A DNA stretch of 54,569 nucleotides, the filler included, from Sphacelaria rigidula (lineage: Eukaryota), in assembly GCA_964200075.2 (NCBI GenBank). It is 2 parts of 2 records of this genome, joined end to end, with 100 filler letters (N's around TTAATTAATTAA, not from the genome) between each part and the next. Parts side by side here need not be neighbours in the genome. Positions count along the whole stretch, not along the records: positions 27,341 to 54,569 come from CAXNAA020000124.1; 1 more part is not named here. One strand, given 5' to 3'. A model generated the notes under the pieces. It was not told where the DNA came from and ran no database searches. It worked only from the letters and a program-made list of their open reading frames with translations. This document shows, piece by piece, positions 8,446-54,569 of the stretch (position 1 is the first letter of the stretch; the number at the start of each line of letters is the position of its first letter). The position numbers and the translations under genes were made by a program.

Positions 8446-10370
8446 TCACAATGCCTCTCCCTCAGCATCCGACCACACCGGACTTTCCTCGACTGTACCT
8501 CTCACAGCTAGAGCCACGTCCTCGAACTTTTGTGAGGATTTGGGACATTCTACCTGGAAATGTCCCGCTTCTCCGCACCTGTGACAAGTACGTTTCGGGC
8601 AATCTTCTGCCCTGTGTGCCGCCACCTCTTTGCACACATGACAACGCCACAGTGGTGGACTTTCAGCGTTGGTGTCCGGTGCTGCCACCTCCCCCGCACC
8701 ATCACCCTTTTCGCCCCCGCCCCCCCCCCCCCCCCCCGGCAAGGAGGGAGGAAGCGCGTTATGGCAAACCCAGAACGGGGGAAACAGGGGGGNNNNNNNN
8801 NNAGTAGGGAGAAGACGATGGCTATACTAGCAGATAGATGGTGGCCACAGACGGCGAAACAGGACGGGGATAAGATATGTCAACGGTTCTTGTATAATGT
8901 ATGGAAGAAACGGAATGAGCTATGGAAGAAACGTAATGAGTGCCGGAATATTGGAGGTGTCTCTATTAGGAGTAGGGAAGGTGCCTCGTCTCGAAAGGGA
9001 TGCGTAGTCAATGGTCACACGATCAAGGGAAGCAACAAATGAGTACGCCCCCCCCCCCCCCCCCCCCCCCCCCCCACACCCAACCAAAACAACAAAAAAA
9101 CAAAACACAAAAANNNNNNNNNNAGGCGATTCCTGCTCTGTTGCTCCTCAACATTGGGTATCAATACTCTGGGCCCCCCCCCCCCCCCCCCCCCGGCCTG
9201 TCCACCCCTTTTCCCCCGTGATTTCCCATCACCTCGGTGTGTGCCCTTTCGTCTGTACTTTTGACCCTTGGACATGAGTGCCCCACCTTGGCTCTCAATC
9301 AATCGTTTGTACGCGCTAGACTCAAACCTGCCACGCACTGTGGACACTACAACCTCCCATGAGAGATCTCTCCGCATCACTTCCAACATCTGTCTCTGTA
9401 TCTCGTATTCTGGTGGGAGGGCGTTGATGAACTTTGAGAGAATCGGGGCATCATTCAAGTGTTTGAACTCTTCGTAGTTCCGCAGCATTCTCGCAGTACT
9501 CTCGAGATCCACGAGGTGTAGGATCGGATCCTTTTCAGAATCGATCACCACATTGTCGAGCTTGTCGAGCAAAGCCAGCCTAGCACCTTGGTTCTTTGGA
9601 CTATGCATTTCAAGTAAGGCACGCCACGCAGCACCCGGGGAAAGCTCTCGGTGAAGAATATCTTGGTCCACCTCTCGTGTTAGGCTAGCACACAGTAGTT
9701 TCCACGCTCCACGATGTGTTCGGACTATATCCCTGCCGAACCTCATTCTAACTCCTCCACGGTAATCCCCGCGTTTCCGACCTCGACATCGTCGGCTCTA
9801 TCACTAAAAACCCAGTCGAGTCGCATGTGCCTTGCATAGTTGATGAGAGAATGACGGAATCTCTCGAATTCACCTTCCTTACCCGAGAGTTTCGGAATCT
9901 CTGGCTTAAACCCCCTTGTAAGCGCCGTCCCCTAATCAAATGACTCGTAGCGCATACCCGTACTTTGCATGCCTCTATCCTCTAGACCAAAAGACTCACG
10001 AAAGGGGCCCGTGCCCCTTGATGTGTCGTGCGCAGCCCCCGATGCCGCGCCCTGTAGTCCCCTGCTGCTGACCCCGTGCTGCTGCGGCAAGGTGCCTCGC
10101 CCCCCCCGCAGCTGACGATCTGTTTGCAGCTGCACTCGGCCCTTCATGTGGGCCGCTGCTAACGGCGGTGCCGTCCGCCCCGTTGCCGCCGGACTCCCTT
10201 GCCCCTCCTGTGCTCATGGTAGCCAACCTCCGGTTCATTTGTTCGAGAAGCTGCGTAATGACCGTCATCCTGCCTTTGAGGTTAATCACTCTATCTTGTG
10301 CGTTGTCTCCCGAGCCCCTCTCTGACGCGTGGTCAGAAGACTGTTGCAAGCCACCACTTCGCGTCATCAT
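8446..10370 (-). mobile_element. Decayed Ty1/copia-like gag (UBN2-like region plus two CCHC zinc knuckles)
   Basis: 9015-9746 ORF: AWRALLEMHSPK...ILSKFINALPPEYEIQRQMLE. 8446-8742: CHVCKEVAAHRAEDC and CHRCGEAGHFQVEC. Broken by frameshifts and N gaps; no pol seen. Confidence 0.7.
8803..9075 (+). mobile_element. LINE family A 3' fragment with long poly(C) run, between two N gaps
   Basis: Matches 13217-13440 and ends CAACAAATGAGTACG followed by a long C run. Confidence 0.75.
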
Positions 10371-10667: not shown

Positions 10668-11135
10668 TGATGTTTGGGCTGTGTTGTTGTGGGTTCAAGG
10701 CAAATGAGGGTAAACTTCTCTATTCCATGTCTATGTCCGGGCTGTGTTATGTAAGGTTCAAGAAAAAGGAGGGTTAGCTTTTCTATTCCATGTCCATGTC
10801 CGGTCCGTGTTATGGTGGGTTATAGAAAAAGGGGAGGATCAGCTTCTCTATTTCATGTCTGTATCCGGGCTGTGTTATAGGAGCTGAAAAAAGAGGAGGG
10901 TTAGCTTCTCAATTCCATGTCTTCGTCCGGGCTGTGTTATGTTAGGTTAGAGAAAAAGGGGGGTCAGCTTTTCTATTTCATGTCTATGCCCGTGCTGTGT
11001 TTTGGTAGGTCAAACAAAAACGATGGTTGGCTTCTATGTTCCATGTCTGTATCCGGGCTGTGTCCTAATAGGTTGAAAAAAGGGGAGGGTCAGCTTCTCT
11101 ATTTTAATGTCTATATCCGGGCTGTGTTATAGGAG
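10668..11135. repeat. Minisatellite, ~63-bp unit, ~7.5 copies
   Basis: Unit ATGTCT.T.TCCGGGCTGTGTTAT...AAAAA.GAGGGT.AGCTT.TCTATTCC recurs at ~10727, 10790, 10855, 10917, 10980, 11043 and 11108. Confidence 0.85.
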
Positions 11136-11460
11136 GTGAAAAAAAAAACGGAGAAATATAGAGAAAGAAAAGAAGGAAAATACCACGAAGGAAGGAAAAA
11201 CAGAATGGCTAAGGAAAAGTAAGTAGTAGAAGTAGGGGAAAGAGGCCATCTTCGGTATATGATGTCTATATCCATTTTGTGTGTGTTTTTTGGGGGAAGC
11301 ATTCGGTTGTTCCATTTTCTTAATGTTGTGTCTGTCGATCCGGGGCTTTCTTTGTCTAGTGGCGGTCCCCGGTATATGGACGGTGACAGTCTGCATATTT
11401 GTCTACATTTTGGTGGCTCGTTTTACAGCGCCGTTGCCACTCGACGCCAACCCAAGAGTC

Positions 11461-13447
11461 TAGGGATGAGGGAGGCGAAGAATGGTTACCACGATGCTTG
11501 TGCTATACAACTGGGTATGGGAGAACGAGTACACACCCAAGAGGTGGCGAGAAGGAGTAGTAGTCAAAATTTTCAAGAAAAGGAGACAAGGCTGACCGAG
11601 GGAACTATAGAGGGATGACGTTTCTGAGCACGGTAGGGAAAACGTTCTGGAAGGTTTTGAACGATAGAGCAGGAACGATGCTAGAGAAGGAAGACAAAAT
11701 CAGCAAGGGACAGGCAGGTTTCAGACCAAACCGTAGTTGCGTAGACCATGTGTACACACTAAGTGAGACTATTCAGGGTAGGAAAGACACGGGGTTGACA
11801 ACGTACTGTTTTTTTCTGGACATGCAAAAGGCTTATGGCACAGTAGGGAGAAATGGGCTGTTGAAAAAATTGTCGGAAACGAGGATCACAGGAAAGATAT
11901 GGAGCATGGTCAAGATGACAGAATGTGCCAAAAGTGCCCTGATGCTAGACGGGGAAATATCGAAGTATTTCGATATCTTACAAGGAGTTGCACAAGGGTG
12001 TACGCTATCATCCGCTTTGTTCAAGGTATTCATTAATGACTTGATGATAGCAATAGAAGCAGAAAATTGAGGAGTCAAGGTGGGTGAAGATGTGATATCA
12101 GGTTTGATATTCGCGGATGATTTTGTGGGGATTTCGGGAACACCAGAAGAATCACAGACATAGACAAGGCGCTAGAATACACTAGGAAATGGAGAGTGAC
12201 GGCGAACGTCAACAAATGCGCGGTACTCGTCTGTAACGAAGATAAGAAAAATCCGGTAGAGTTCAAGTGGAAGTGGGGAGAAGAGGAACTGCCGATCGTA
12301 GACCGGTGTACATACCTTGGCGTGGAGATCTCAAAACACTGTTGTTGGGATGCGCACATGAACAAAGTAATAAAAAAGGTTAAGGCACAGATAGGCAGGT
12401 TGGACGTGACTCTCAGAGACCCGCACCTAGACACTAGGATGTATCCTGATGAACGTGATCGTACCAAAGCTGGAATATGCAGGAGAAGTATGGGAGGGGA
12501 ATGTGAAGTCGGTGGAGAGGTCGGAGACAGTACAGGTGGCAGCAGCTAAGAAGATACTTGAATGCTCGAAAACGACGAGTAATACAGTATTGAGAGCAGA
12601 GTTGGGGATGTACTCACTTGAAACAGAGACATGAGGAAATTGCGATGGCAATATAGCGTAAAGAACATGCAGAGAAATATATCGCCAGCTATAGTTGATC
12701 TGGCTGTATGGAAGAAAAGTACGAAAGGCCAGGAATAAGGTGGGATAAAGAAGTCGAGAAAGTGGGGAAGGAGATAGGCGGAAACCAAGACGGCATACTG
12801 TGCATACATGAAGATGCGGGGTACAAGACAAAAGTAAGAGACACGATCGAAGTAAGGGGAAAAGGAGCGCTCAGACGCAAGGTAGACGAGGAAATACACC
12901 TGGAGATACACGGGTGGTTGAGAGAGGGGATCGGAATGAAAAGATGTCGGCATGCCCCAATGGCCGCTGCGAAAAATATGAAATTGCGATTTCGGGTGTG
13001 GGACCTGGACCTGCCAGAAAGAAGAAAGACATTTACCAGTAGTCATGTGGAGGAGGAAGGAGATGGACAGAACTGCTCATGTGGCAATGGAATAGAGAGC
13101 AGAAGTCATGTAGTGGCAGAATGTACAGTAAACTATTCAAGGAGGAACGGGACGAGCTAGAGGGGGAAATGCGGGACGTGAACGGAGGTGGAATGAAATC
13201 GATTGATGCATCAGACAGTAGGAAGAAAACGATGGCCTTACCAGGAGATAGATGGTGGCCACAGACGGCGAAACAAGACGGGGATAAGAAATGTTTCATG
13301 TTTTAGTGTAATGTATGGAAGAAACGTAATGAGCGCCGGAATGTTGGAGGTGTCTCTATTGGGAGTAGGAACGGTGCCCCGTCTCAAAAGGGATGCGTGG
13401 TCACTGGTCAAACGACTTAGGCAAGCAACAAATGAATGTGCCCCCCC
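11461..13447 (+). mobile_element. 5'-truncated, decayed non-LTR retrotransposon (LINE family A): RT and C-terminal Cys/His motif
   Basis: KKGD...NYRGMTFLS, QAGFRPNRSCVDH, FLDMQKAY, GVAQGCTLS, FADD (12110-12121, in frame after the stop at 12068-12070), YLG, CSCGNGIESRSHVVAEC. Multiple frameshifts and stops. Confidence 0.9.
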
Positions 13448-42615: not shown

Positions 42616-44584
42616 CGGACAGTGAACGTCACCAACGCAATGCCGCCCGTCCAACCATCAATACCGCAGTGCGTCACGATAGTTGCTACACGCTCTTCGG
42701 CCTCACGCTAGCGGAGCAGACAGCGTGCCTTGCTCTTTGTGACCACCGTACCGCGCAGTGGTGTATGGAGAGGGTACTGTAATCGACGCTGAACAGCCAG
42801 CTTGTGCAACTCCGGTCATGAACATTTAGTGCTACTCGTGCGTGCGAGCGTCTTGTATATGTTATGATTCAAGTGTGGCATTTTCTCCAGCCAGTCACCC
42901 TTGATATCATTTGGGCTGTTGTTTGGCGTCGCATGCAGCCTCTTCAACCGACACTTGACACCATTCCGTGATATGCTATGACGGCGAGCTCTCCCTCACA
43001 ACTGACGGTGAGGAAGAGGACAGTGTAGGTGGTAAGGGTCATTACAAAAGGTGGCGGCGCGCGGACAAACGAGAAGCAGACCGCCGTCACAAATGAGAGG
43101 CTGCTGCGTCGGTGGCCGCCCATCGAAGAATCCTGTCTGCTCTTACCGATTGTTGACTATGTCCTCAGTCGGTGGCTCTGCGGTGTCCATTGGTGTGTCT
43201 GTATCTATTCTGCTGCCCTGAATATATTTTTTCACTTCTTCATTTGAGATCGGCCATTTCTTTCTGTGCTTTGCTTCTGTTGACTCGAGTCTTTTGTTTT
43301 TTTCACGTCTTCGTCTACTGTGTCGTTTTGTTCGACTTTTTCCTGCCCTTTATTTTTCTTCAGCGAGTGTTTCAACATTTCTGGGTACGGTTATCATGTG
43401 ACCACTGCTTGATCCCTGGGGGGTCAGTTAAAGTGCAACAATTGATCAATCAATCAATCAATCAGTCAAATCCCATAGAAACTGAGCACTATTTCTTGAA
43501 AGTAGTCGCATCTTCCCGTACCGTCGGTCGATAGGTTGACACTGTGCTACTTCGCACAGTGGGAGTCCCACCACAGAGCAGGCAGAATCACGGATCACAA
43601 GTCTGATCCGTTACAGTGATACAAGTAACTGCACTTAACCAGTGCAGTGCAGTGATCCAGCATAGTGCGGTCATGCCTGCCCTGCGATCCACCCTACTCG
43701 GCTGGGACCCTCACAGGATGTAAATATTCCATACCCAGGATGGCGTAAACTACACATTGCAATGACTGGAATGTATCACGCCCTGGACAAAACAACAACT
43801 AATATATACTGCCCGCTCAATATGTCGGCGCGTCAGGTGGTCAATATATGTTGGGGGAGCATATGGTGGCACGAGAGACAGGTCAATATATATTGTGTCA
43901 TCAACATGTTTTCGACTCGCGACATGCAATGTATATATCGACCGAACAATTTATTACGACACGCTCCACCTCAACGTGTATTTGTCGAGTAACATATTGG
44001 CTGCCATACGGGGTCAATGTACGAAGTATAGTGACGCTTTAATTTACGCAACACCCGAAGCACTGATATATATTGCCACCCCAATATGTCGTGCGTTAAT
44101 GCGTCCAATATATGTTGGGCGAACAGCACACCAGAGAATCGATCGTCACAAATTACTTTAAATTCAGTTGGTGAATTTGGTTTCTGCTCCGGGTGAAAAA
44201 TTCGACTAAGCGGTTTGTTGCGACTTTTGTTTGCTACATTTTTTCCACTCTAAAACCTCTATTGATTTGGGTTTTGGAGGGGAAAACTTTGGCAAACATA
44301 AACCCAACGTATCTTGCTCCAAGGGGCACCTGGACACACAGCAGTTGCTGCTGCCTACCTAGTACCATGTCCAAATCGAAGTCTTGAGTGACAACGCCCG
44401 GCGTTTGGTGCCTATGTACATGGATGACAAAGTGAGTTCCGGCTGCCGATGTCTACAACGACAGTGATCGGCCGCGCGTATATCTACATGTCACCATTAT
44501 GCTGAACTGCGACACAACACAGGGAGAGGGTTGCGAAGGGAAATGTTGTGGACTTGGTGTGGCCAAAAGGAAAATCCAACATTA

Positions 44585-44781
44585 GAGGGTTTCGGAAAAA
44601 GCTTTGACATTTCAGAGTGCAAATATCTCAGGATCAGAGTACAGAATAAAAAAAACACACCTCATCCCAAAAACGTTGAGGGGATACCACATTTGACGGA
44701 AGGAGAAACTTTTTTTCGCTACACTCTCATCCTGAAAAAATTGCACTCTGAAATGACAAAAAAGCGTTCTCCGAAACTCTC
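44585..44781. mobile_element. MITE with GAG(G/A)GTTTCGGA termini
   Basis: GAGGGTTTCGGAAAAAGC...TTTCAGAGTGCAA versus TTGCACTCTGAAA...GCGTTCTCCGAAACTCTC. Related ends at 22697-22740 and 23671-23714. Confidence 0.6.
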
Positions 44782-45161
44782 TATTGAGGTAGTCGCCGTT
44801 CCCAAATGAAATCTACGTAAAGCGGTGCTTGTTTAGTTGTATTCAACATACAGACAGTACAGACAGTACAGTGCTGGCTTGTACTGTCTGCACAGTATGT
44901 GTGTTGGGCCAGTTCATTGCCAACACATTGCAAAGCCATATCTGCCAACAATGATGCTGTACGAGGAATATCATCGGGTTCGCCGCCTCGCTTGTTCATC
45001 ACTTCTTTCCTCCACGAACATGCTCTTCTCCACTTCCTTCGACGTACCCCTTCCACCTACCTTTTCGGTATACCCTGCGCAAGCGAACGCTGCCGACATG
45101 CACGTGCGGTGCAGTATAGCAACTACTTCACGACCCCCTGAATCAATTGAACCTGGAAGCG

Positions 45162-45716
45162 CCCTGGACAAAGGGCAACCTATATATATATTGGTGGATA
45201 AATACATTTCGATTCAAGATGTGAATTGGAAAGTGTACAGGAATGAAGATGTTGAACATTTTGTGTTGGCAGGCGCCATCGAAAGATGTATCACCAGATG
45301 CCGAAAATGCTCAATATATCCCTCCGTGAGCGTCTCCAGTTTATATCAGCTGACAATCGCTGTGCGATAAGCTTGCGCAATACATGTTGGAAATGAAATA
45401 CTTTTGCATGGTTTGTGTTCAAAATGTATAACGGCAACAGTATGTTACGCATCGTATCAAGTCAAAATATATTGACACCTTGATTTAAGCACGGCCTGCG
45501 TGAGCAATATATAGTGAATGTTTTGTTCCCGGAGCAAATGCATGTCCGATGTATATTTTCCTGCATCACTTCGCTGTCATGACATGAGAAATATGTATTG
45601 TTGCTTCAATGTCTCCGGGGACATCTAATTACAAAATATAGTTCGAAGGGGAAATATTGGCTCTGTCTCCAATATTAAGAATGATATTATATTGCAACAT
45701 ATTATATTGTCCAGGG
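45162..45716. mobile_element. Putative AT-rich MITE with CCCTGGACAA termini
   Basis: CCCTGGACAA (45162-45171) / TTGTCCAGGG (45707-45716), with many AATATA motifs inside. No clear TSD. Confidence 0.45.
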
Positions 45717-48492
45717 TACAAGCAACACGGCACCGGTGACCAGAGGGATGCCTAAAGACGCATAACGGCCCGCGTTTTCTGCCACCGCACTGTTTATCCA
45801 CGATATATTCCGTACCGTGAAGGGAATGGGAGGCACCGCACCGGTGGCCAGATAGGTATCAGCAGGTATATAGATGTACCAGGTTGCCTTTTCTGTCACC
45901 ATATTTTCCGGCCGAAGTATATATATATATATATATATGTATATATCAAACTCATTACACAACTCTCCGTAGCCATGCACGCGAACTTCTGCAGCTTCCT
46001 TTCAAGGTTTTTCCAATCTTCACGGGCTCCGGGATCCATCGCGCCTGGATCTTTTTCAAAGCGTACACCATACCTATTATATTGCATGACCTTGAAGGTT
46101 TGCGGGGCCTTGCGAAGCCGATGTCCGTGCAGGAGTTTGGCGATTGCCGTCTTGACGACCTCCCGTACACTGGTTGTTGCCGCAACGGGTTGACGCGGCA
46201 AGACGGCGCAGTCATTGTCCCTCGACCCCTGCGAAATCTCACAAGTGTCCCCATCGTCTAACCTCGCCGAGCCACCACCAGACTCGCCGCCAGCGGTCGG
46301 TCGACCAGCGTTACTTAGAAATTCGTCCATCTCCTACTGGTTTCGACTGTCGCTTTTTTTACGCAAATGGTCGCCTTGCTCTCCCGTTATGCGGTGAAGG
46401 GAAGGGGGTTGGGTGGCCTGTAGGGGGCAGAGAGCCACAGAGGTATGCTTTTCCGTGGGCAGCTCGCAGCCATTCACTATTGTTGCAGCTGACAACCACA
46501 AAATAGTACATACCCTGGAAGCTGATTAGCTCGTAAACAACAGAGGTATCTCAAACTCTAGGCTCCCGGTATATAATAGTAGTTTACAGTAAAAAATACC
46601 AGAACTTCGAGTTTGAAATATCTCCAACGCTCCTGGTTTGTTTGCTGGCTCTGGGTGACGGCCTTGTTTCAAGTAAAAGTGATTCCGATTCATCAGTCAG
46701 CGCAACCTCACAGCCGAAGGGTCAGGCAAATGATGAATCGGATCACTTTCTCTCGAAGAATTACTCCGAAATATCCCGAAGGGACGACGCAACACTCTCG
46801 TCTTTTTTTTTCCTCGGCATGATTCGAGATGACCCTCGTATAAACAGTCTGCACGCCAACAAAAAATGTAATATTTACTTGTTGAATTACCCTGGATAAG
46901 AGATTCGTTGAACGGACTGATTTTCAGTTCTTGGATAAAATGGTTTGGTGAAGCATGTACTCGACATCAATGCGCCCACCCCATGTGTACTGGGTTGGTG
47001 ATATGTTGTAACACTCGCTATCCCGATATATATACTTGTACTGGTACCCCTGAACGGGTACTGATATACTGACCGGGCAATATAGTCGCACCCATACAAC
47101 CCCAATATATATTGACCGGCCAGTACATACTGAACTTTCGCAGAGGCAGTAGAGTAATCACAGCAGCAAAAAATCACGGGGGTTATTTTTTGCTCAGTCG
47201 CTTCAGGTCTTGCCGAAGCCAAAGTTTGATCAAAATATTTTAGCAAATCCTTGCTGGTGTGATTTGGATGTCGATCTCTACACTCGCGTTTCTGTGTCGC
47301 CAGCGTTGGCAAGGTGTTTGCAACAGATGAGCAACTGATTCTATGTAGAGGCTTACACAGCCACCGCAATGACACCTGTGGTACATGAAATACCTCTCTT
47401 TCGAGTTTTACTGTCCAATAGGTCAAGATCGCCGTGACGCTTCTCACTAGCCATGATACGACCCGTGCATCTCTGCTGGCGCTGTTGAACATGAAAGCTG
47501 ACCGCCTCTCACCGCGCGCGCCTGTTCAAATGCGTACCCAAGGATGTAGTGTACGCGGCGCTGCACAGCAATCACTCACCCTATCGGTAACATTGTCTGG
47601 CTATTCACTATGTCCAACATCTCCTAGTGGGCTCGTCCTGTCTGCTCTGCGAGCCCTGTGGTTTTTATATGAATACGTCAGGTCTCCTTGATACAGCTGA
47701 GCATGCCTTGACATCGGCATCCTGGTTCACATATTTTATGCAGCAGGGCTATGCTCTCGTGCGACACAAGTGCTTGATCAGCTTTCGACCCCTATTGCAA
47801 TCCTGTAGAAGCCGCCGCGCCCCGGTGGAGTGATGGTCCGACTGTCGCCATCGGGGTGGAAATTACAAGGGTTTGATTCCTGATGCGTTGTTTTATTCTT
47901 CGTATTGCCTGATTTCCACCGTGGAAAGTGTGAGAACGTGAGTAAAGTAAGTAGTCGACGGAGTTTGTGTGACGTGAGTTGACGTTGTGCGAGAGTGCTG
48001 ATAGTCATGACCCAATGGGCAAGGCACAAATGCAAGGGTCGTATCTTTGGAGAGATGGGTTGATCCCGTGAGACCACAGACTCATCCCGAGGCAGGGAAG
48101 GGTTTCAAAGTGCGACGAAAAAGAAAAATTAGAAGAAGACGACGTCCCAATCGCTCGAATCGTCTTGTGAGTAGTACTGTACTTGTTGGCGTCAGTTTGC
48201 ATGAAGCGTGGTCTGAGTTGGTTGCAGTCAGCTGCTTTTTCACCAGAGAATGTGCCGCTATAACAGTAACATCGGTTCTCCACAGCGTTTCCGCTCTCTG
48301 TTACCCACGCTTCACGAGGTGTTTGCCGCCGTCTGTTTGTGCTACTGTGACCAGCTGATTTCAACACCCGACGCGACAGGGCTGATCGACGACGTCACGA
48401 GGTAGTGCATCAGCAAGGCCGGGTACAAGTCACCCCGAGGCTTCTACAAGGCTACAAGGCGGAGTTCTCCCAAGCACGCCAGGAAGGGAAGG

Positions 48493-51219
48493 GTGAATGT
48501 GGGGAAAGAGAGGTGCGGCGGCGGGGGTTGCTACACGTGTGCGTTGTATGGTGTACCGGGGAGCAAGAAGGCAGAGCCCTGCTCCAAGCATGACACGGCG
48601 GGAATTGTAAATGTGGTGGATAAGAGGTGCGGCTACGAGGGCTGCTCTACGCGTCCATCGTATGGTGTAGCCGAAAGCAAGAGAGCGGAGTTCTGCTCCA
48701 AGCACGCCAGGGCGGGAATGGTGAATGTGGTGGATAAGAGTTGCCGCTACGAGGGCTGCTCCACGCGTCCATCGTATGGTGTAACCGAAAGCAAGAAAGC
48801 AGAGTTCTGCTCCAAGCACGCCAGGGCGGGAATGGTGAATGTGGTGGATAAGAGGTGCGGCTACGAGAGCTGCTCCACGCGTCCATCGTATGGTGTAGCG
48901 AGAAGCAAGAAAGCAGAGTTCTGCTCCAAGCATGCCAGCGCGGGAATGGTAAATGTGGTGGATAAGAGGTGCGGCTACGAGGGCTGCTCCACGCGTCCAA
49001 CGTATGGTGTAGCGGGGAGCAAGAAAGCGGAGTTCTGTTCCAAGCATGCCAGGGCGGGAATGGTGAACGTGGTGCGCAAGAAGTGCGGCTACGAGGGCTG
49101 CTCCACGCGTTCATCTTATGGTGTGAAGGAACGCACAGAGGCGGAGTTCTGTTTCAAGCACGTCAGGGAGGGAATGGTGAATGTGGTGGATAAGAGGTGC
49201 GGCTACGAGGGCTGCTTCATGCACCCATCGTATGGTGTAGCGGGAAGCAAGAAGGCGGAGTTCTGTTCCCAGCACGCCAGGGCGGGAATGATAAGTGTGG
49301 TGGATAAGACGTGCCGCTACGAGGGCTGCTCCACGCGTTCGACGTATGGTACAGCGGGAAGCAAGAGAGCGGAGTTCTGCTCCAAGCACGCCAGGGCAGG
49401 AATGGTGAATGTCGTGGATAAGAAGTGCGGCTACGAAGGCTGCTCTACGCGTCCGTCGTATGGTGTAGCCGAAAGCAAGAAAGCAGAGTTCTGTTTCAAG
49501 CACGCCAGGGCGGGAATGGTGGATGTGGCGAACAAGAGGTGCGGCTACGAGGGCTGCTCCACGCGTCCATCGTATGGTGTAGCGGGAAGCAAGAAAGCAG
49601 AGTTCTGCTCCGACCACGTCAGCGCGGGAATGGTAAATGTGGTGGGCAAGAGGTGCAGCAACGAGGGCTGCTCCACGCGTCCATCGTATGGTGTAGCGGG
49701 GAGCAAGAAGGCGGAGTTCTGCTGCAAACATGCCAGGGCGGGAATGGTGAACGTGGTGCGCAAGAAGTGCGGCTACGAGGGCTGCTCAACGCGTTCATCT
49801 TATGGTGTGAAGGAACGCACAGAGGTAGAGTTCTGTTTCACGCACGTCAGGGAGGGAATGGTGAATGTGGTAGATAAGAGGTGCCGCTACGAGGGCTGCT
49901 TCATGCACCCATCGTATGATGTAGCGGGAAGCAAGAAGGCGGAGTTCTGCTGCAAGCATGCCAGGGCGGGAATGTTGAATGTGGCGAACAAGAGGTGCGG
50001 CTACGAAGGCTGCTCTTCGCGTCCATCGTATGGTGTAGCGGGAAGAAATACGGCGAAGTTCTGCCCTAAGCACGCCAGGGTGGGAATAGTGAATGTGACG
50101 AACAAGAGGTTTGCCTACGAAGGCTGCTCCACGCGTCCATCGTATGGTGTAGCCGAAAGCAAGAAAACGGAGTTCTGTTCCGAGCACGCCAGGGCGGGAA
50201 TGGTGAATGTGGTGGAGAAGAGGTGCGGCTATGAGGGCTGCTCCACGCACCCATCGTATGGTGTAGCGGGAAGCAAGAAGGCGGAGTTCTGCTGCAAGCA
50301 TGCCAGGGCGGGAATGGTGAATGTGGTGGGTGAGAAGTGCCCTTACGAGGGCTGCTCTACGCGTCCAACGTATGGTGTTGCGGGGAGCACTAAAGCGGAG
50401 TTCTGCTGCAAGCATGCCAGGGCGGGAATGGTGAATGTGGCGAACAAGAGGTGCGGCTACGAGGGCTGCTTTACGCGTCCATCGTATGGTGTAGCCGGGA
50501 GCAAGAAGGCGAAGTTCTGCTCCAAGCATGCCAGGGCGGGAATGGTAAATGTGGTGGGCAAGAAGTGCGGCTACGAGGGCTGCTCCAAACGCGCTATCGA
50601 CGCGAAGCAAAGCGTTCATGAGTTGAAGTTTTGCGGGCGGCACGCTAGTGCAAACAACACAGCTACGGTGTCGGGCACCACGAAGCTCAGCATTGGGGGG
50701 GGCACCCCCGGCTGTAGCCTGACGGCGGGCGACGGAAAAAGCATTGCTGATGTGCAAAGAGGGAAACGCAAGCGTGCAGCGGTCTCGGGTTCCGTTGCCA
50801 ACGACAATGCTGGTGTTCACCGTGGTATGTACTCCGGTCTCAGGCAGAGTGTGAGAACGACATTGCCTTCGGGGCACTTACCTTCAATGGCTGAGGGTAA
50901 AGTGGTTTTGGGCGCAAGGGCAGGAACAGGAATGAAGGTGGAATTGGCAATGCCTTCTTCCACACACGGTGGCGATGGTGTGAGGGTGTATCGCGAGCAC
51001 GCTGCTCCTTCGAGTGGTTGGAGCAGCAAACGTGGTGATGGTGGCTTCATGGTCAGTGGTGAAGGGAGTACGGGGCGGCTTTGCGGTTCGCTGGCAGTGG
51101 TACGTGAACGTCTGGGCACATCTGATGGCGTGGACTTTGAAGAGGCAGGGGAGAACCCGAACGTGAAGTTGGAGCTACGAATGTCTTGTCCATTCCCTCG
51201 GACATCCGGTACACGGTAG
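48493..51219 (+). CDS. EsV-1-7-like cysteine-rich tandem repeat protein (~19 x 38 aa); true start uncertain (first in-frame ATG 48718)
   Basis: 908-codon open frame. 114-bp repeats at 48499-50664 with consensus VVDKRCGYEGCSTRPSYGVAGSKKAEFCSKHARAGMVN (C-x4-C-x16-C-x2-H), then a non-repetitive tail. Confidence 0.88.
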   Translation: MNVGKERCGGGGCYTCALYGVPGSKKAEPCSKHDTAGIVNVVDKRCGYEGCSTRPSYGVAESKRAEFCSKHARAGMVNVVDKSCRYEGCSTRPSYGVTESKKAEFCSKHARAGMVNVVDKRCGYESCSTRPSYGVARSKKAEFCSKHASAGMVNVVDKRCGYEGCSTRPTYGVAGSKKAEFCSKHARAGMVNVVRKKCGYEGCSTRSSYGVKERTEAEFCFKHVREGMVNVVDKRCGYEGCFMHPSYGVAGSKKAEFCSQHARAGMISVVDKTCRYEGCSTRSTYGTAGSKRAEFCSKHARAGMVNVVDKKCGYEGCSTRPSYGVAESKKAEFCFKHARAGMVDVANKRCGYEGCSTRPSYGVAGSKKAEFCSDHVSAGMVNVVGKRCSNEGCSTRPSYGVAGSKKAEFCCKHARAGMVNVVRKKCGYEGCSTRSSYGVKERTEVEFCFTHVREGMVNVVDKRCRYEGCFMHPSYDVAGSKKAEFCCKHARAGMLNVANKRCGYEGCSSRPSYGVAGRNTAKFCPKHARVGIVNVTNKRFAYEGCSTRPSYGVAESKKTEFCSEHARAGMVNVVEKRCGYEGCSTHPSYGVAGSKKAEFCCKHARAGMVNVVGEKCPYEGCSTRPTYGVAGSTKAEFCCKHARAGMVNVANKRCGYEGCFTRPSYGVAGSKKAKFCSKHARAGMVNVVGKKCGYEGCSKRAIDAKQSVHELKFCGRHASANNTATVSGTTKLSIGGGTPGCSLTAGDGKSIADVQRGKRKRAAVSGSVANDNAGVHRGMYSGLRQSVRTTLPSGHLPSMAEGKVVLGARAGTGMKVELAMPSSTHGGDGVRVYREHAAPSSGWSSKRGDGGFMVSGEGSTGRLCGSLAVVRERLGTSDGVDFEEAGENPNVKLELRMSCPFPRTSGTR

Positions 51220-51764
51220 ATCACACCGTTTGTTGTAGCGATCTCGTTGCTGAGATTACCCGAGGAGAATGTCGGTGTGTTTTCTCGTATGTCGTCAGCG
51301 GTCTCGAAGGGCAACTGGTCCGCAGGGTTGCTTTTGTTCTCTCAATGCATACCTATTCCTGAGCTTGTAGGGTCTTGGTAATCTAGCACCACGTTCCACC
51401 TGATTCTCATGTAGGCGCAGTTACCATACCTGCTTCGATCGTGTGCTTTAGTAGCAAGTTGCCGAGGGCTGGCAGAGAGACGACGTACGCTACAGTAGTA
51501 GAGGTGACTGTCCAAATTAAGGCACGGTTATGGCACCTTACGGGGAAAACTCTGGTTCGTGGGAACCACCACACGTAGAACAATGACCAGAGTATCCGGA
51601 GAGAGACACTTCAGTCGTTTATCACCCAAGCGTTTCAAAATCAATAAATAGCCAAAGCAGTTTGCAGGAGTGGATGTGGAGTATGGCTCTATTGACGTTA
51701 AAAATGCGGCCAGAACACCCTCTGTTTCAATTACGGTACACTTTACCCAGCAGTTGATTTCCCG

Positions 51765-52305
51765 CGGCCTTAGACGGTTCAGACCTTCTCTTTTGGTACA
51801 AACATTTATGAGATCAGTGCGGTCCGTTACAAAGCAAATAAATGAATAGAAAATAACATTATTTTATTCGGGGATGAAAATCGCGCATCCCATGGTGTTC
51901 GGAACAACTTTCGCCATGACGTCGGTTTTTGGCAACGCCGTACTCGACGAAAACGTTTTTCTCCCTTTGTTTTTTCTTTTTCAACCCATTGGTATACATT
52001 TTGATAGTATTCTCCCGAAGTTTGATGTTCATCGGTTACGCTTACGCTAGTTCATGACGTACGTTGAGTGGTGCCCCCCAATCACTCATTTTTAACCAGA
52101 AATCGATAATGACCAAGAAAATGGAACACCTGAGACGTTTCAGACCGTTTCCTTTGGTCCAAATGTTTTTACGACTATTGCGGTCTGTTTTTCAGAGAAG
52201 ACAAAAAGGTGGGGATAAAAATGGCCCATCCCCAAGTGTTCGGGATAAATTTGTCCATCAAGTCAGTGTTGGGCAACGCCGTACTCGACGAAAACGTCGT
52301 TTTTC
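51765..52305. repeat. Diverged direct repeat, two ~190-bp copies ~350 bp apart
   Basis: Both copies contain GGCAACGCCGTACTCGACGAAAACGT and AGACG.TTCAGACC. Confidence 0.7.
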
Positions 52306-54569
52306 GTTCTCTCATTCATCAACACATCGAAACACGTTGTAAGACACACTTTTATGGCAAACAAATCTCGACTTTTTGGCACCCCGATTTTGAAAAAATC
52401 CGGGGGGGGGACTCAAATTCGTGTACTCAAAATCGGGGTGACCGTTCCATGGCAAGACGACTTTTTGAGGGACAGTTTGCTACAGGGAGGGTCATCCTCC
52501 AAATTTCAACTTCATCTAACGCGCATCCGGTCACAGTCCCGCACGGCGCCATTCATAGGCAGCCGACGATCAACACTTCCAGCGCGCACTCGAAGACTAC
52601 AATCTCACCATGAGCGAGACGCTGATGCTGAACATGAGCGAAGCAACAGAATAACAGCTGGCGTGGGCCGTGAAACGGCTTGCATTGTCGTGTGCAGAAT
52701 AAGCGGGGAAGCCGTCATGGGCAGTGGTGCGGACTGCGCGAAACGTCGGCATGTGGTATGCATGGTCTGGCATTCGGCAGGCCAGGGCCATGTCTAGCGA
52801 GGAGAAACACCGAGAAGGCGCGCGAAGCAGCAAGAACTTCGCGATCCCAGCATGCCTCGAATTCTTCAAAGATCACTGCAAGTTCTGTCCGCCGTGGTCG
52901 ACCGCGGACATGATGGGGTACACAACCCTTAGCGGTGGTGAGGGCTGGTTTATGTTCGCATCGGAAAGTTCGCAGTCAGTAGTCCAGAGACTAGAGGTAG
53001 ACTTGAATGTACAGTCAGTGCTGTGTGTGAAGCGCTGTTCAGACCGCTTGAGGGTGAAGGACCAACATGTACTTCCCAGCGGTTTGTCACGCCAATTTTT
53101 TCCAGGCAGACCCCGTTCTCGCCCATGGGGTAGTCTGTGATATCTATAACTCTGCACGAAGAGCCTTTTCAAATTTTGCCTTTTGTACCACATTCTCGGG
53201 GTCCCAGGAGGCATTGTGGCATCTCTGTATGTCTGCCTCTTTCGACGACCCTCCGGCGAAATGAATCCGCGGCGTGAATTGAACAGCTTCCCTCCCATCC
53301 TTTTGCGTCAATGTCTGCTGTGTGTGCACGCCACCTGCGGCACCCTGTACAACCCGCTCGAGAGATCCCCCGAGAGATTTCGCACACGAGTACCGTGTAA
53401 TATTGTTAAACCTCCATGAACGTACTTTATTTGTGTTTTTCAGCGACATATCGGGAGTGTGATGAAGCTCAGAGGCGTTGCAAGATGTACGCTGTGCGGA
53501 TCTGCTCGTAGACCCTGGATCCCGTGACGCGTTGTTATCGCGTTTGCTACTGTCATAAGTTAGGGTTGTTCAGGCGCGGCGCCAGGCCGCCTCGCCCCAT
53601 CTCAAACAGTTACTGCCCTTGCCGTGGTCTACCCTGGGTTATCACTACACTCTGCTCCCATGGCTGCCCTGCGCTGCGGCTGTACTGAGTAAGAGAGCTG
53701 CTTGTAGATAAAACATGAGGCTATGAAACACGTGAGTTCTTAGTCAGCAGTCTAACATCGATGAACATACTTGTGATTGTTCTTGATGGATAGATAAAGG
53801 TCTGTGTGAAGTTGCCCACGTGGGAGCTTGGTGAGTTGGCACCATGGTATCTCCTGGCACTCATACTGAGAGACCCCAGCCAGTACTTTAGTTACTCACT
53901 CCACATGGTAATTGGCGTTGATAAACGGACCTTGTTCTGCTTGGTTGGGAAGTCTTTGTGTTGCTTGGCGTTGTGTTTTGCTGCTCAAGCTGTAATAAGT
54001 AACTCGGTTATTATTCTGCGGTTTTTCTACTTGTATTTAGTGAGGTGCCCCTGGTCTGTTCTGATTGTCGTGGGCCTCAGCCCACCCTGGGCTCGGTTGC
54101 ATTGTACAACGGTAGTGAAGACTGCTGTACGTTGCCCCCGCTTCGCGTATTAATGATACGAATCTGCCCCTCCGTTGGTACACTGCTTGGAGCTGCTGAG
54201 CGATTTGCTGTAGCTACCCTTGGGTCCTGTTCTCGCTTGTTTACATCCACGTAAGTGCCATGGTGACGCACTTTGTTGGAACCCGACTACGCGTCGGTCT
54301 GGCCGAAACTGCGTTCAAGTTCCGCCTTGTGCATGTAACCAACCGTTATTCTTGTCTCACTACGGTGTGTCCACTCTGCTTTCGAACAGGGTATCGTACG
54401 CGCCACTGTGCCTTGTACAAAGTGTGTGCCCGCCGACCACTACTACATTGATGGTTGATAGTTGGTCTCAACGGCTCATGCTGTAGTAGCATATGGTTCA
54501 TGTGCCTCGTGCCGAATTAAAACGCTCCCCCCCCTGTACCTCGGCGAGCACCCCAGATATTAGTAGATG

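Follow-up and report, generated by a model that had tools for sequence, protein, structure and literature searches.

The EsV-1-7 family (PF19114) is characterized by a 38-aa repeat of the form C-x4-C-x16-C-x2-H and includes EsV-1-7 of Ectocarpus siliculosus virus 1 as well as IMM, a developmental regulator of Ectocarpus. Here we describe a gene encoding the same repeat in a 54,569-nt stretch of DNA from the brown alga Sphacelaria rigidula (GCA_964200075.2), hereafter referred to as the window, in which positions 27,341-54,569 come from CAXNAA020000124.1. The predicted protein is a new, long member of the known family, with 17 units compared with 3-7 in the closest paralogues and five in IMM. 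We consider it probable that this is a nuclear, zinc-dependent DNA-binding regulator using an arm that viruses attach to a nuclease, with uniform modules suited to a target that is simple or of low specificity.

Publications already cover the family together with its link to viruses and its expansion (PMC7457493, PMC12993054, bioRxiv 2024.02.19.579948, bioRxiv 2026.04.27.720984). There are 95 family genes in Ectocarpus, 234 in Saccharina latissima and 335 in Ascophyllum nodosum, and Table S17 of the same preprint holds 2,018 family members, which may include the gene of the window (bioRxiv 2024.02.19.579948). EsV-1-7 genes also constitute the largest brown-algal orthogroup (bioRxiv 2026.04.27.720984). 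IMM itself has a unique N-terminal domain and five repeats (bioRxiv 2024.02.19.579948), and compared by architecture only, the window protein differs from it in starting inside the array and in having no IMM-like N-terminal domain; no longer N-terminus can be accommodated in the array exon because of an in-frame stop at 48403. That EsV-1-7 proteins are zinc-finger transcription factors has been put forward as a hypothesis (PMC12629598, citing Macaisne 2017), and a Mariner transposase of Ectocarpus harbours an N-terminal EsV-1-7 domain (PMC12477816).

The same repeat is found in giant-virus proteins in which it is fused to a Vsr-type domain, some of them named 'Endonuclease' in UniProt (A0A3G4ZWE6, A0A2R8FFX4). 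In contrast to these fusions, the window protein lacks the nuclease domain, is encoded in repeat-rich eukaryotic DNA and is not diversified at residues 9 and 11 of the repeat. It is only the viral relatives that resemble I-Bth0305I and the EDxHD homing endonucleases, which combine N-terminal repeated DNA-binding motifs with a Vsr-fold catalytic domain (3r3p; PMC3239194). The motifs of the latter are NUMOD motifs and their genes reside in phage introns, whereas the viral relatives use zinc repeats and the window protein has no catalytic domain.

Organization of the repeat array

Tandem Repeats Finder reported an array at 48459-50587 with a period of 114, 18.7 copies, 83% matches and 0% indels. 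The array lies in a single plus-strand frame, which is open from 48406 to the stop ending at 51219 (937 aa from stop to stop) and is preceded by an in-frame stop at 48403-48405. In exact register from 48514, 19 units of 38 aa (114 bp) with the pattern C-x4-C-x16-C-x2-H-x12 can be read, which bears out an earlier note, made from the sequence alone, that described about 19 C3H modules with a 114-bp period and no indels; all variant words listed there are present in the array as well. The spacing C-x4-C-x16-C-x2-H is retained by 18 of the 19 units, the exception being unit 15, which is devoid of the first Cys. The note had also placed the repeats in the EsV-1-7 family and called the array basic. 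Both statements proved correct, as PF19114 matched 18 stretches (E 1.3e-272; 879.7 bits against a curated cut-off of 25), and K+R amount to 123 against 61 D+E over 722 aa. The elements of the array are as follows.

48628..50565, plus strand: core array, units 2-18, each C-x4-C-x16-C-x2-H-x12 and 38 aa/114 bp long; unit 2 lies mostly upstream of the predicted start
48400..48627, plus strand: units 0 and 1, both decayed and both located before the first in-frame ATG
49540..49995, plus strand: units 10-13, block copy of units 4-7 (48856-49311), with 8, 7, 5 and 13 nucleotide differences per matched pair
50110..50223, plus strand: unit 15, with Phe in place of the first Cys; zinc binding by this module is probably lost
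50566..50643, plus strand: terminal unit 19, four ligands present, loop diverged (repeat profile E 5e-5)

Eight of the 38 positions (E4, C6, Y12, F22, C23, H26, G30 and V34) are invariant in the 17 core units (2-18), while the first Cys is present in 16 of them and is a Phe in unit 15. Between unit 1 and the core units there are 20-33 nt differences, and unit 1 has no linker Met; most of the ligands of unit 0 are gone. The unit tree pairs unit 6 with 12, 4 with 10 and 7 with 13, thus grouping three of the four block-copy pairs. The best explanation of the array is recent growth through tandem and block duplication, and the words KER and FMHPS each occur twice only as a consequence of the block copying of units 4-7 into units 10-13.

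No C2H2 or KRAB match was found by Pfam in the array protein, the ligand spacing being CCCH, and no other Pfam domain had a passing stretch; a match to Phe_ZIP, having none, was rejected as chance. The PHROGs search yielded nothing usable.

An AlphaFold2 model of units 2-7 had a mean predicted local distance difference test score (pLDDT) of 92 and a predicted template modelling score of 0.59, the latter meaning that the relative placement of the units is uncertain. The units are modelled as beads built from loops and short strands, and no helix reaches 4 residues. When the array model was compared with 48,161 chains by VIA-align, none matched at Z>=2, and the best E value in Foldseek was 1.5, which does not imply a new fold; a match to PDB entry 1q2h was dismissed as chance (E 0.17 and 1.7). 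A structure search of a viral library returned EsV-1-7 (Q8QNQ2, 47% identity) as the best match together with giant-virus proteins, 4 of the 29 significant matches being named 'Endonuclease'.

Variation among the units

When each derived nucleotide was counted once, 55 non-synonymous and 26 synonymous changes were obtained, and pairwise comparison between units gave a ratio of non-synonymous to synonymous substitution rates (dN/dS) of 0.39. A family-conserved set of 14 positions was defined by an entropy of <2 bits in nuclease-free homologues, i.e. from the homologues and not from this array. Fold-forming positions are under purifying selection, since only 10 of the 92 possible non-synonymous changes are seen at these 14 positions compared with 45 of 157 at the other 24 (p=9e-4). 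At the 24 tolerant positions the changes are spread as by chance (overdispersion p=0.67).

The earlier note had claimed that variation clusters right after Cys2, in the loop and between Cys3 and His, and had proposed to examine variability and dN/dS position by position across the repeats; it had also named neutral, evenly spread variation in advance as the result that would speak against its idea of a modular recognition protein. Such variation is what was found outside the scaffold of this array. The ten positions named there show 19 of 61 possible amino-acid-changing substitutions compared with 33 of 115 at other non-scaffold positions (Fisher p=0.73; p=0.35 in a second count). The region after Cys2 (positions 7-11) shows 6 of 29 possible amino-acid-changing substitutions and has the commonest word in 7 of the 17 units, and only positions 24-25 stand out (p=0.036, uncorrected). 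The most variable positions in the core units are 36, 24, 2, 38, 19, 25 and 16. What stands of the three regions is that the one after Cys2 holds residues 9 and 11, which diversify in viral arrays; the family does not change fastest in the loop (15-17) or at positions 24-25. The variation noticed earlier is mostly drift at tolerant positions.

These results bear on the view that the gene is a dispensable recent amplification in a birth-and-death family, its length being due to unequal crossing-over, its purifying signal inherited from the ancestral unit and its own function slight. Such an origin would be in keeping with the very large lineage-specific families of 95 to 335 genes (bioRxiv 2024.02.19.579948), with a 5' end that contains decayed units and is preceded by five ATGs, with the lost ligand of unit 15, with the near-neutral change at tolerant positions and with the fact that no orthologue of such length was found. 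Yet there is no indel across 2.1 kb, and none of the 16 possible stop-creating changes is seen, although this count is weak alone. Moreover, the unit tree is near-star, so that most differences between units arose after the amplification, and still the conserved positions were avoided; the tail of the protein, in turn, retains all three of its short motifs. We therefore regard dispensability as quite unlikely.

Homologues and viral nuclease fusions

A conserved C-terminal domain of ∼180 aa is carried by 68 of the 111 homologues and is absent from the remaining 43; the same domain occurs in 85 of the best 150 of 5,675 representatives. It has no Pfam name. In the AlphaFold2 model of one fusion protein (pLDDT 91), the domain matched best, among 48,161 chains, to Vsr (1cw0; Z 9.2, root-mean-square deviation 3.2, 114 residues aligned), followed by the homing endonuclease I-Bth0305I (3r3p; Z 8.3, root-mean-square deviation 3.4, 95 aligned). 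A motif RxD..ExDExxH is found in 137 of 146 domain-bearing proteins and resembles, by motif and not by superposed residues, the Asp/His set of Vsr and I-Bth0305I (PMC3239194). Look-alike clusters of the nuclease domain in the ESM Atlas belong to Nucleocytoviricota. The repeat is probably the DNA-reading arm that is fused to a Vsr-type nuclease in giant viruses. A profile of the viral domain, run against the window protein and a six-frame translation of the window, gave no match (best E 0.53).

A search for the domain motif, which favours the fusion, gave 80 viral loci, where 86 of the 88 domain-bearing frames also contain repeats. Searches with the repeat only recovered the fusion at all 3 viral loci and at 10 of the 18 metagenome loci; seven of the other eight are cut by the contig end and one is complete without the fusion. 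A major capsid (22) or Rpb2 (19) gene is situated within 5 kb in 34 of the 80 viral loci, mostly adjacent to a free-standing gene (six of these neighbours were checked in Pfam). Free-standing homing endonucleases are expected beside conserved core genes. Genes of the capsid and Rpb2 type have been named as common sites of introns and inteins (bioRxiv 299784). Nuclease-free and nuclease-bearing homologues are alike in variability position by position (Spearman 0.88).

The repeats might instead, like many small zinc domains including CCCH ones, bind RNA or a repeating protein surface, the protein being a nuclear scaffold. The basicity of the array fits any nucleic acid, CCCH ligand sets occur in RNA-binding fingers, and RAP domains, which have the Vsr fold and act on RNA, are placed third and fifth in the fold search (RAP being named in the title of row 5). 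We find such a role unlikely, considering that the two best folds for the viral domain are DNA nucleases, that the viral genes adjoin conserved core genes like homing endonucleases do, and that an EsV-1-7 domain is present in a DNA transposase.

Several further features of the viral genes were observed. In seven related giant-virus loci (L012, L014, L017-L020, L024) the repeat-nuclease gene lies between a divergent major capsid gene, 10-100 bp away, and Rpb2 further downstream. In three others (L058:7018-7545, L046:1844-3517, L087:2-520) the nuclease gene is accompanied by an adjoining second copy, which is shortened in some cases, as if after local duplication and decay. The nuclease-like domain is also combined with WRKY19-type zinc fingers (PF24906) in 55% of a 66-member viral cluster of the ESM Atlas, and since one protein (P0039) matches both the EsV-1-7 and the WRKY19-type families, the two repeats may be related. 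Another protein (P0106), named very-short-patch-repair endonuclease, combines a DUF559 domain with four EsV-1-7 repeats and seven DUF4379 repeats of the treble-clef type, and is a second, independent pairing of the EsV-1-7 repeat with a Vsr-like nuclease. The 'VSR' of PMC12906663 was set aside, as it means virus-specific region and not the Vsr nuclease. MIGE elements were likewise considered for the viral genes; the accessible text of bioRxiv 299784 describes a single zinc-finger open reading frame in many copies and contains no mention of the EsV-1-7 repeat.

Residues 9 and 11

To the viral arrays, 67 nuclease-fused genes contributed 43 clusters, 17 of which had sibling repeats within 25 nt (70 pairs). 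Among these siblings the ratio of non-synonymous to synonymous changes per site (pN/pS) was 1.73 at position 11 (bootstrap 1.22-2.38) and 1.59 at position 9 (1.09-2.38), as obtained by a spanning-tree method that is sensitive to hub repeats. The two positions were the top two in 98.9% of bootstraps over the 17 genes, the next being position 36 (1.04), and the result held whether positions 9/11 were left in the distance or taken out of it (1.77 and 1.62 with the positions left in and clustering omitted). The 232 viral repeats display 97 different pairs at these positions. In nuclease-free homologues position 9 is among the two most variable sites, while position 11 is mostly Ser. Fast change at 9/11 alone does not establish base reading; of the residues of the repeat, these two would be the likeliest base contacts.

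A hypervariable pair at fixed positions, as in TALEs, is therefore present in the viral relatives but not in the window array. Here the pair is RS in 11, HS in 3 and RT in 3 of the 17 core units, and pN/pS is 0.18 at position 9 and 0.56 at position 11. The same spanning-tree method applied at the protein level gave 0.62 for position 11 of the window array; this value was rejected as a hub artefact, as the DNA-level counts disagree.

Hence a TALE-like code, in which the variable residues of each unit would choose the base or bases of one long complex target, seems very improbable for this protein. In favour of it are the candidate two-residue code of the viral relatives (both pN/pS values >1), the rank of position 9 as a top variable site in nuclease-free homologues too, and the mild enrichment of positions 24-25. 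Opposed to it are the uniform pair of the window units, the chance-like spread of change over tolerant positions with no enrichment at the named sites, and the origin of recurring variants in block duplication. With residues 9/11 nearly identical in every unit, a DNA target would be simple, repetitive or of low specificity rather than complex and coded.

Coding sequence and C-terminal tail

The predicted protein and the elements of its tail are listed below.

48718..51219, plus strand: predicted coding sequence, 833 aa, 17 EsV-1-7 units (3-19) and a low-complexity tail, isoelectric point 9.4
50644..51219, plus strand: C-terminal tail of ∼190 aa, low complexity, no nuclease domain, no match to the viral tail profile
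50764..50775, plus strand: basic motif KRKR resembling a nuclear localization signal (NLS); a basic cluster is present in all 7 aligned paralogue tails
50932..50943, plus strand: SUMO (small ubiquitin-like modifier)-consensus motif (psi-K-x-E) MKVE, with K and E conserved in 7/7 paralogue tails
51163..51174, plus strand: second SUMO-consensus motif VKLE, with a matching motif in 5/7 paralogue tails (one has D for E and one is truncated before the motif)

Translation is inferred to start at 48718, the first in-frame ATG of the 937-aa frame, where position -3 is a purine and position +4 is G; the annotated start of five close paralogues is at the equivalent linker Met. The tail is most similar to those of five S. 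rigidula proteins (37-49% identity), which contain 3-6 strict repeats, and two further tail relatives have seven (P0132) and five (P0148). As the closest tails belong to S. rigidula proteins with the same linker-Met start, the gene is, on this sequence evidence, a host gene of the brown alga that belongs to a lineage-specific Sphacelaria subfamily and has an unusually long array. A tail-only search of proteins of 515-1640 aa gave no match, the tail paralogues found otherwise being shorter. No orthologue of comparable array length was present among the homologues searched, nor was a second EsV-1-7 gene found within the window.

While the remaining tail diverges, the paralogues retain motifs of the KRKR, MKVE and VKLE type. 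We take psi-K-x-E to be the SUMO consensus and K(K/R)x(K/R) the monopartite NLS consensus. Both were counted in those 78 of 94 nuclease-free homologues that have a tail of at least 40 aa and compared with shuffled tails. The psi-K-x-E motif occurred 56 times, in 41 of the 78 tails, compared with 8.9 after shuffling (largest shuffle 18), and K(K/R)x(K/R) 55 times compared with 12.8, whereas the control motifs psi-R-x-E (14 vs 14.7) and psi-K-x-D (12 vs 7.6) were not enriched.

Proposed function

Taken as a nuclear DNA-binding regulator, the protein would enter the nucleus via its basic motif, each repeat would bind one zinc, in line with the zinc binding proposed for the family, and the array would bind double-stranded DNA along its length, while the SUMO-consensus sites may serve regulation or the recruitment of chromatin partners. 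The earlier note had inferred that a long basic array could read nucleic acid module by module. The first half of this idea receives indirect support from the viral Vsr-fold nuclease fusions, the EsV-1-7 domain of the Mariner transposase and the NLS/SUMO motifs of host tails; a module-by-module code is not borne out in this array.

A number of points weigh against the proposed function, and one must bear in mind that all support for DNA binding derives from relatives. A literature search found no binding, zinc, localisation or SUMO result for any EsV-1-7 member. In the array, tolerant positions change at about the synonymous rate (transitions 24/48 vs 21/37, transversions 21/109 vs 5/40), so that the fold is under selection, with no visible selection on specificity. 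The Z scores of 8-9 of the viral domain are slightly above the usual best chance Z of 7-8, and Foldseek found no match for this domain at E<=0.001, its top rows being mostly restriction-like endonucleases. Near-duplicates are found among the viral loci, a single group accounting for 8 of the 19 Rpb2 loci. The 78 tails are mutually related, which causes the shuffle test to overstate significance, and most of them are not named as algal. Finally, the predicted start at 48718 has five out-of-frame ATGs upstream of it, whose frames run for 2-37 codons, and the predicted protein leaves out unit 2, although this unit is intact.

Genomic context

Pfam analysis of 99 frames of the window of at least 112 aa, and of 15 frames in another scan, revealed no viral family that might point to an endogenous giant-virus element; apart from EsV-1-7, the only matches in these frames were reverse transcriptase and copia gag. 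A copia-type gag fragment is located at 9018-9797 on the minus strand and a reverse transcriptase fragment at 11564-12067 on the plus strand, and between the two lies a tandem array at 10676-11147 (period 63 bp, 7.5 copies). A 51-nt inverted repeat spans 44603-44760. High-copy repeats, as seen in a run guessed to be DNA, occur on both sides of the gene (47530-48235, 44000-46100, 51413-52471 and 53178-54569).

In three runs of guessed or unknown kind (X1, X2, X4), contigs cover the unique tail and the 3' flank at a depth of 81-250 compared with 3-13 over the unique sequence flanking them; X1 and X2 seem to be a single data set, and contig depth cannot rank genes, which makes the depth a lead and not evidence. 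The run guessed to be DNA has a flat depth, 23-57 on the flanking pieces. Two runs show a contig break at 48382, and depth steps from ∼4 to ∼187 here; as a lead only, 48353-48382 may thus contain the start of a transcript or, with the AG at 48353-48354, a splice acceptor, between which the contigs cannot decide. An AATAAA is found at 51643, ∼420 bp past the stop, near the contig ends 51702 and 51746 of the guessed-RNA runs.

Comparison with known systems

KRAB zinc-finger proteins combine tandem zinc modules with a short regulatory region, form large lineage-specific families and have a link to SUMO. The comparison with the window protein is one of how they may work only, for its modules are CCCH without a helix, it has no KRAB domain and any target or repression is putative. 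The beta-beta-alpha fold of C2H2 fingers is not seen in the array either, the model having no recognition helix. TALE repeats, in turn, are near-identical tandem helical hairpins of 33-35 aa without metal, whereas the unit described here is a 38-aa strand-and-loop zinc module whose candidate pair hardly varies; the likeness to TALEs lies in the viral relatives, where two fixed residues per repeat change fastest.

A broader and rather unlikely proposal may be derived from these parallels. EsV-1-7 repeats would join C2H2 fingers and TALEs as a third kind of natural modular DNA reader that can be re-programmed, specificity being set by the pair of residues 9 and 11, and would direct giant-virus homing nucleases to their targets. 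Brown algae would have retained this arm but not the nuclease, equipped it with nuclear-import and SUMO motifs and multiplied it into several hundred regulators, in parallel with the KRAB zinc fingers. A literature search, from which subscription journals were mostly missing, turned up no publication dealing with the nuclease fusion, with the 9/11 pair or with the SUMO motifs. The window locus itself is not a coded array. If the proposal is true, its near-uniform RS array of 17 units would read simple-repeat DNA and offer a ready framework in which one module type could be decoded, and a transferable code would provide a new programmable DNA-binding scaffold together with a large brown-algal class of transcription factors. 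The comparison around this locus points to DNA as the predicted ligand, to residues 9 and 11, to viral fusions whose cut sites would report the target and to host tails bearing SUMO-type motifs.

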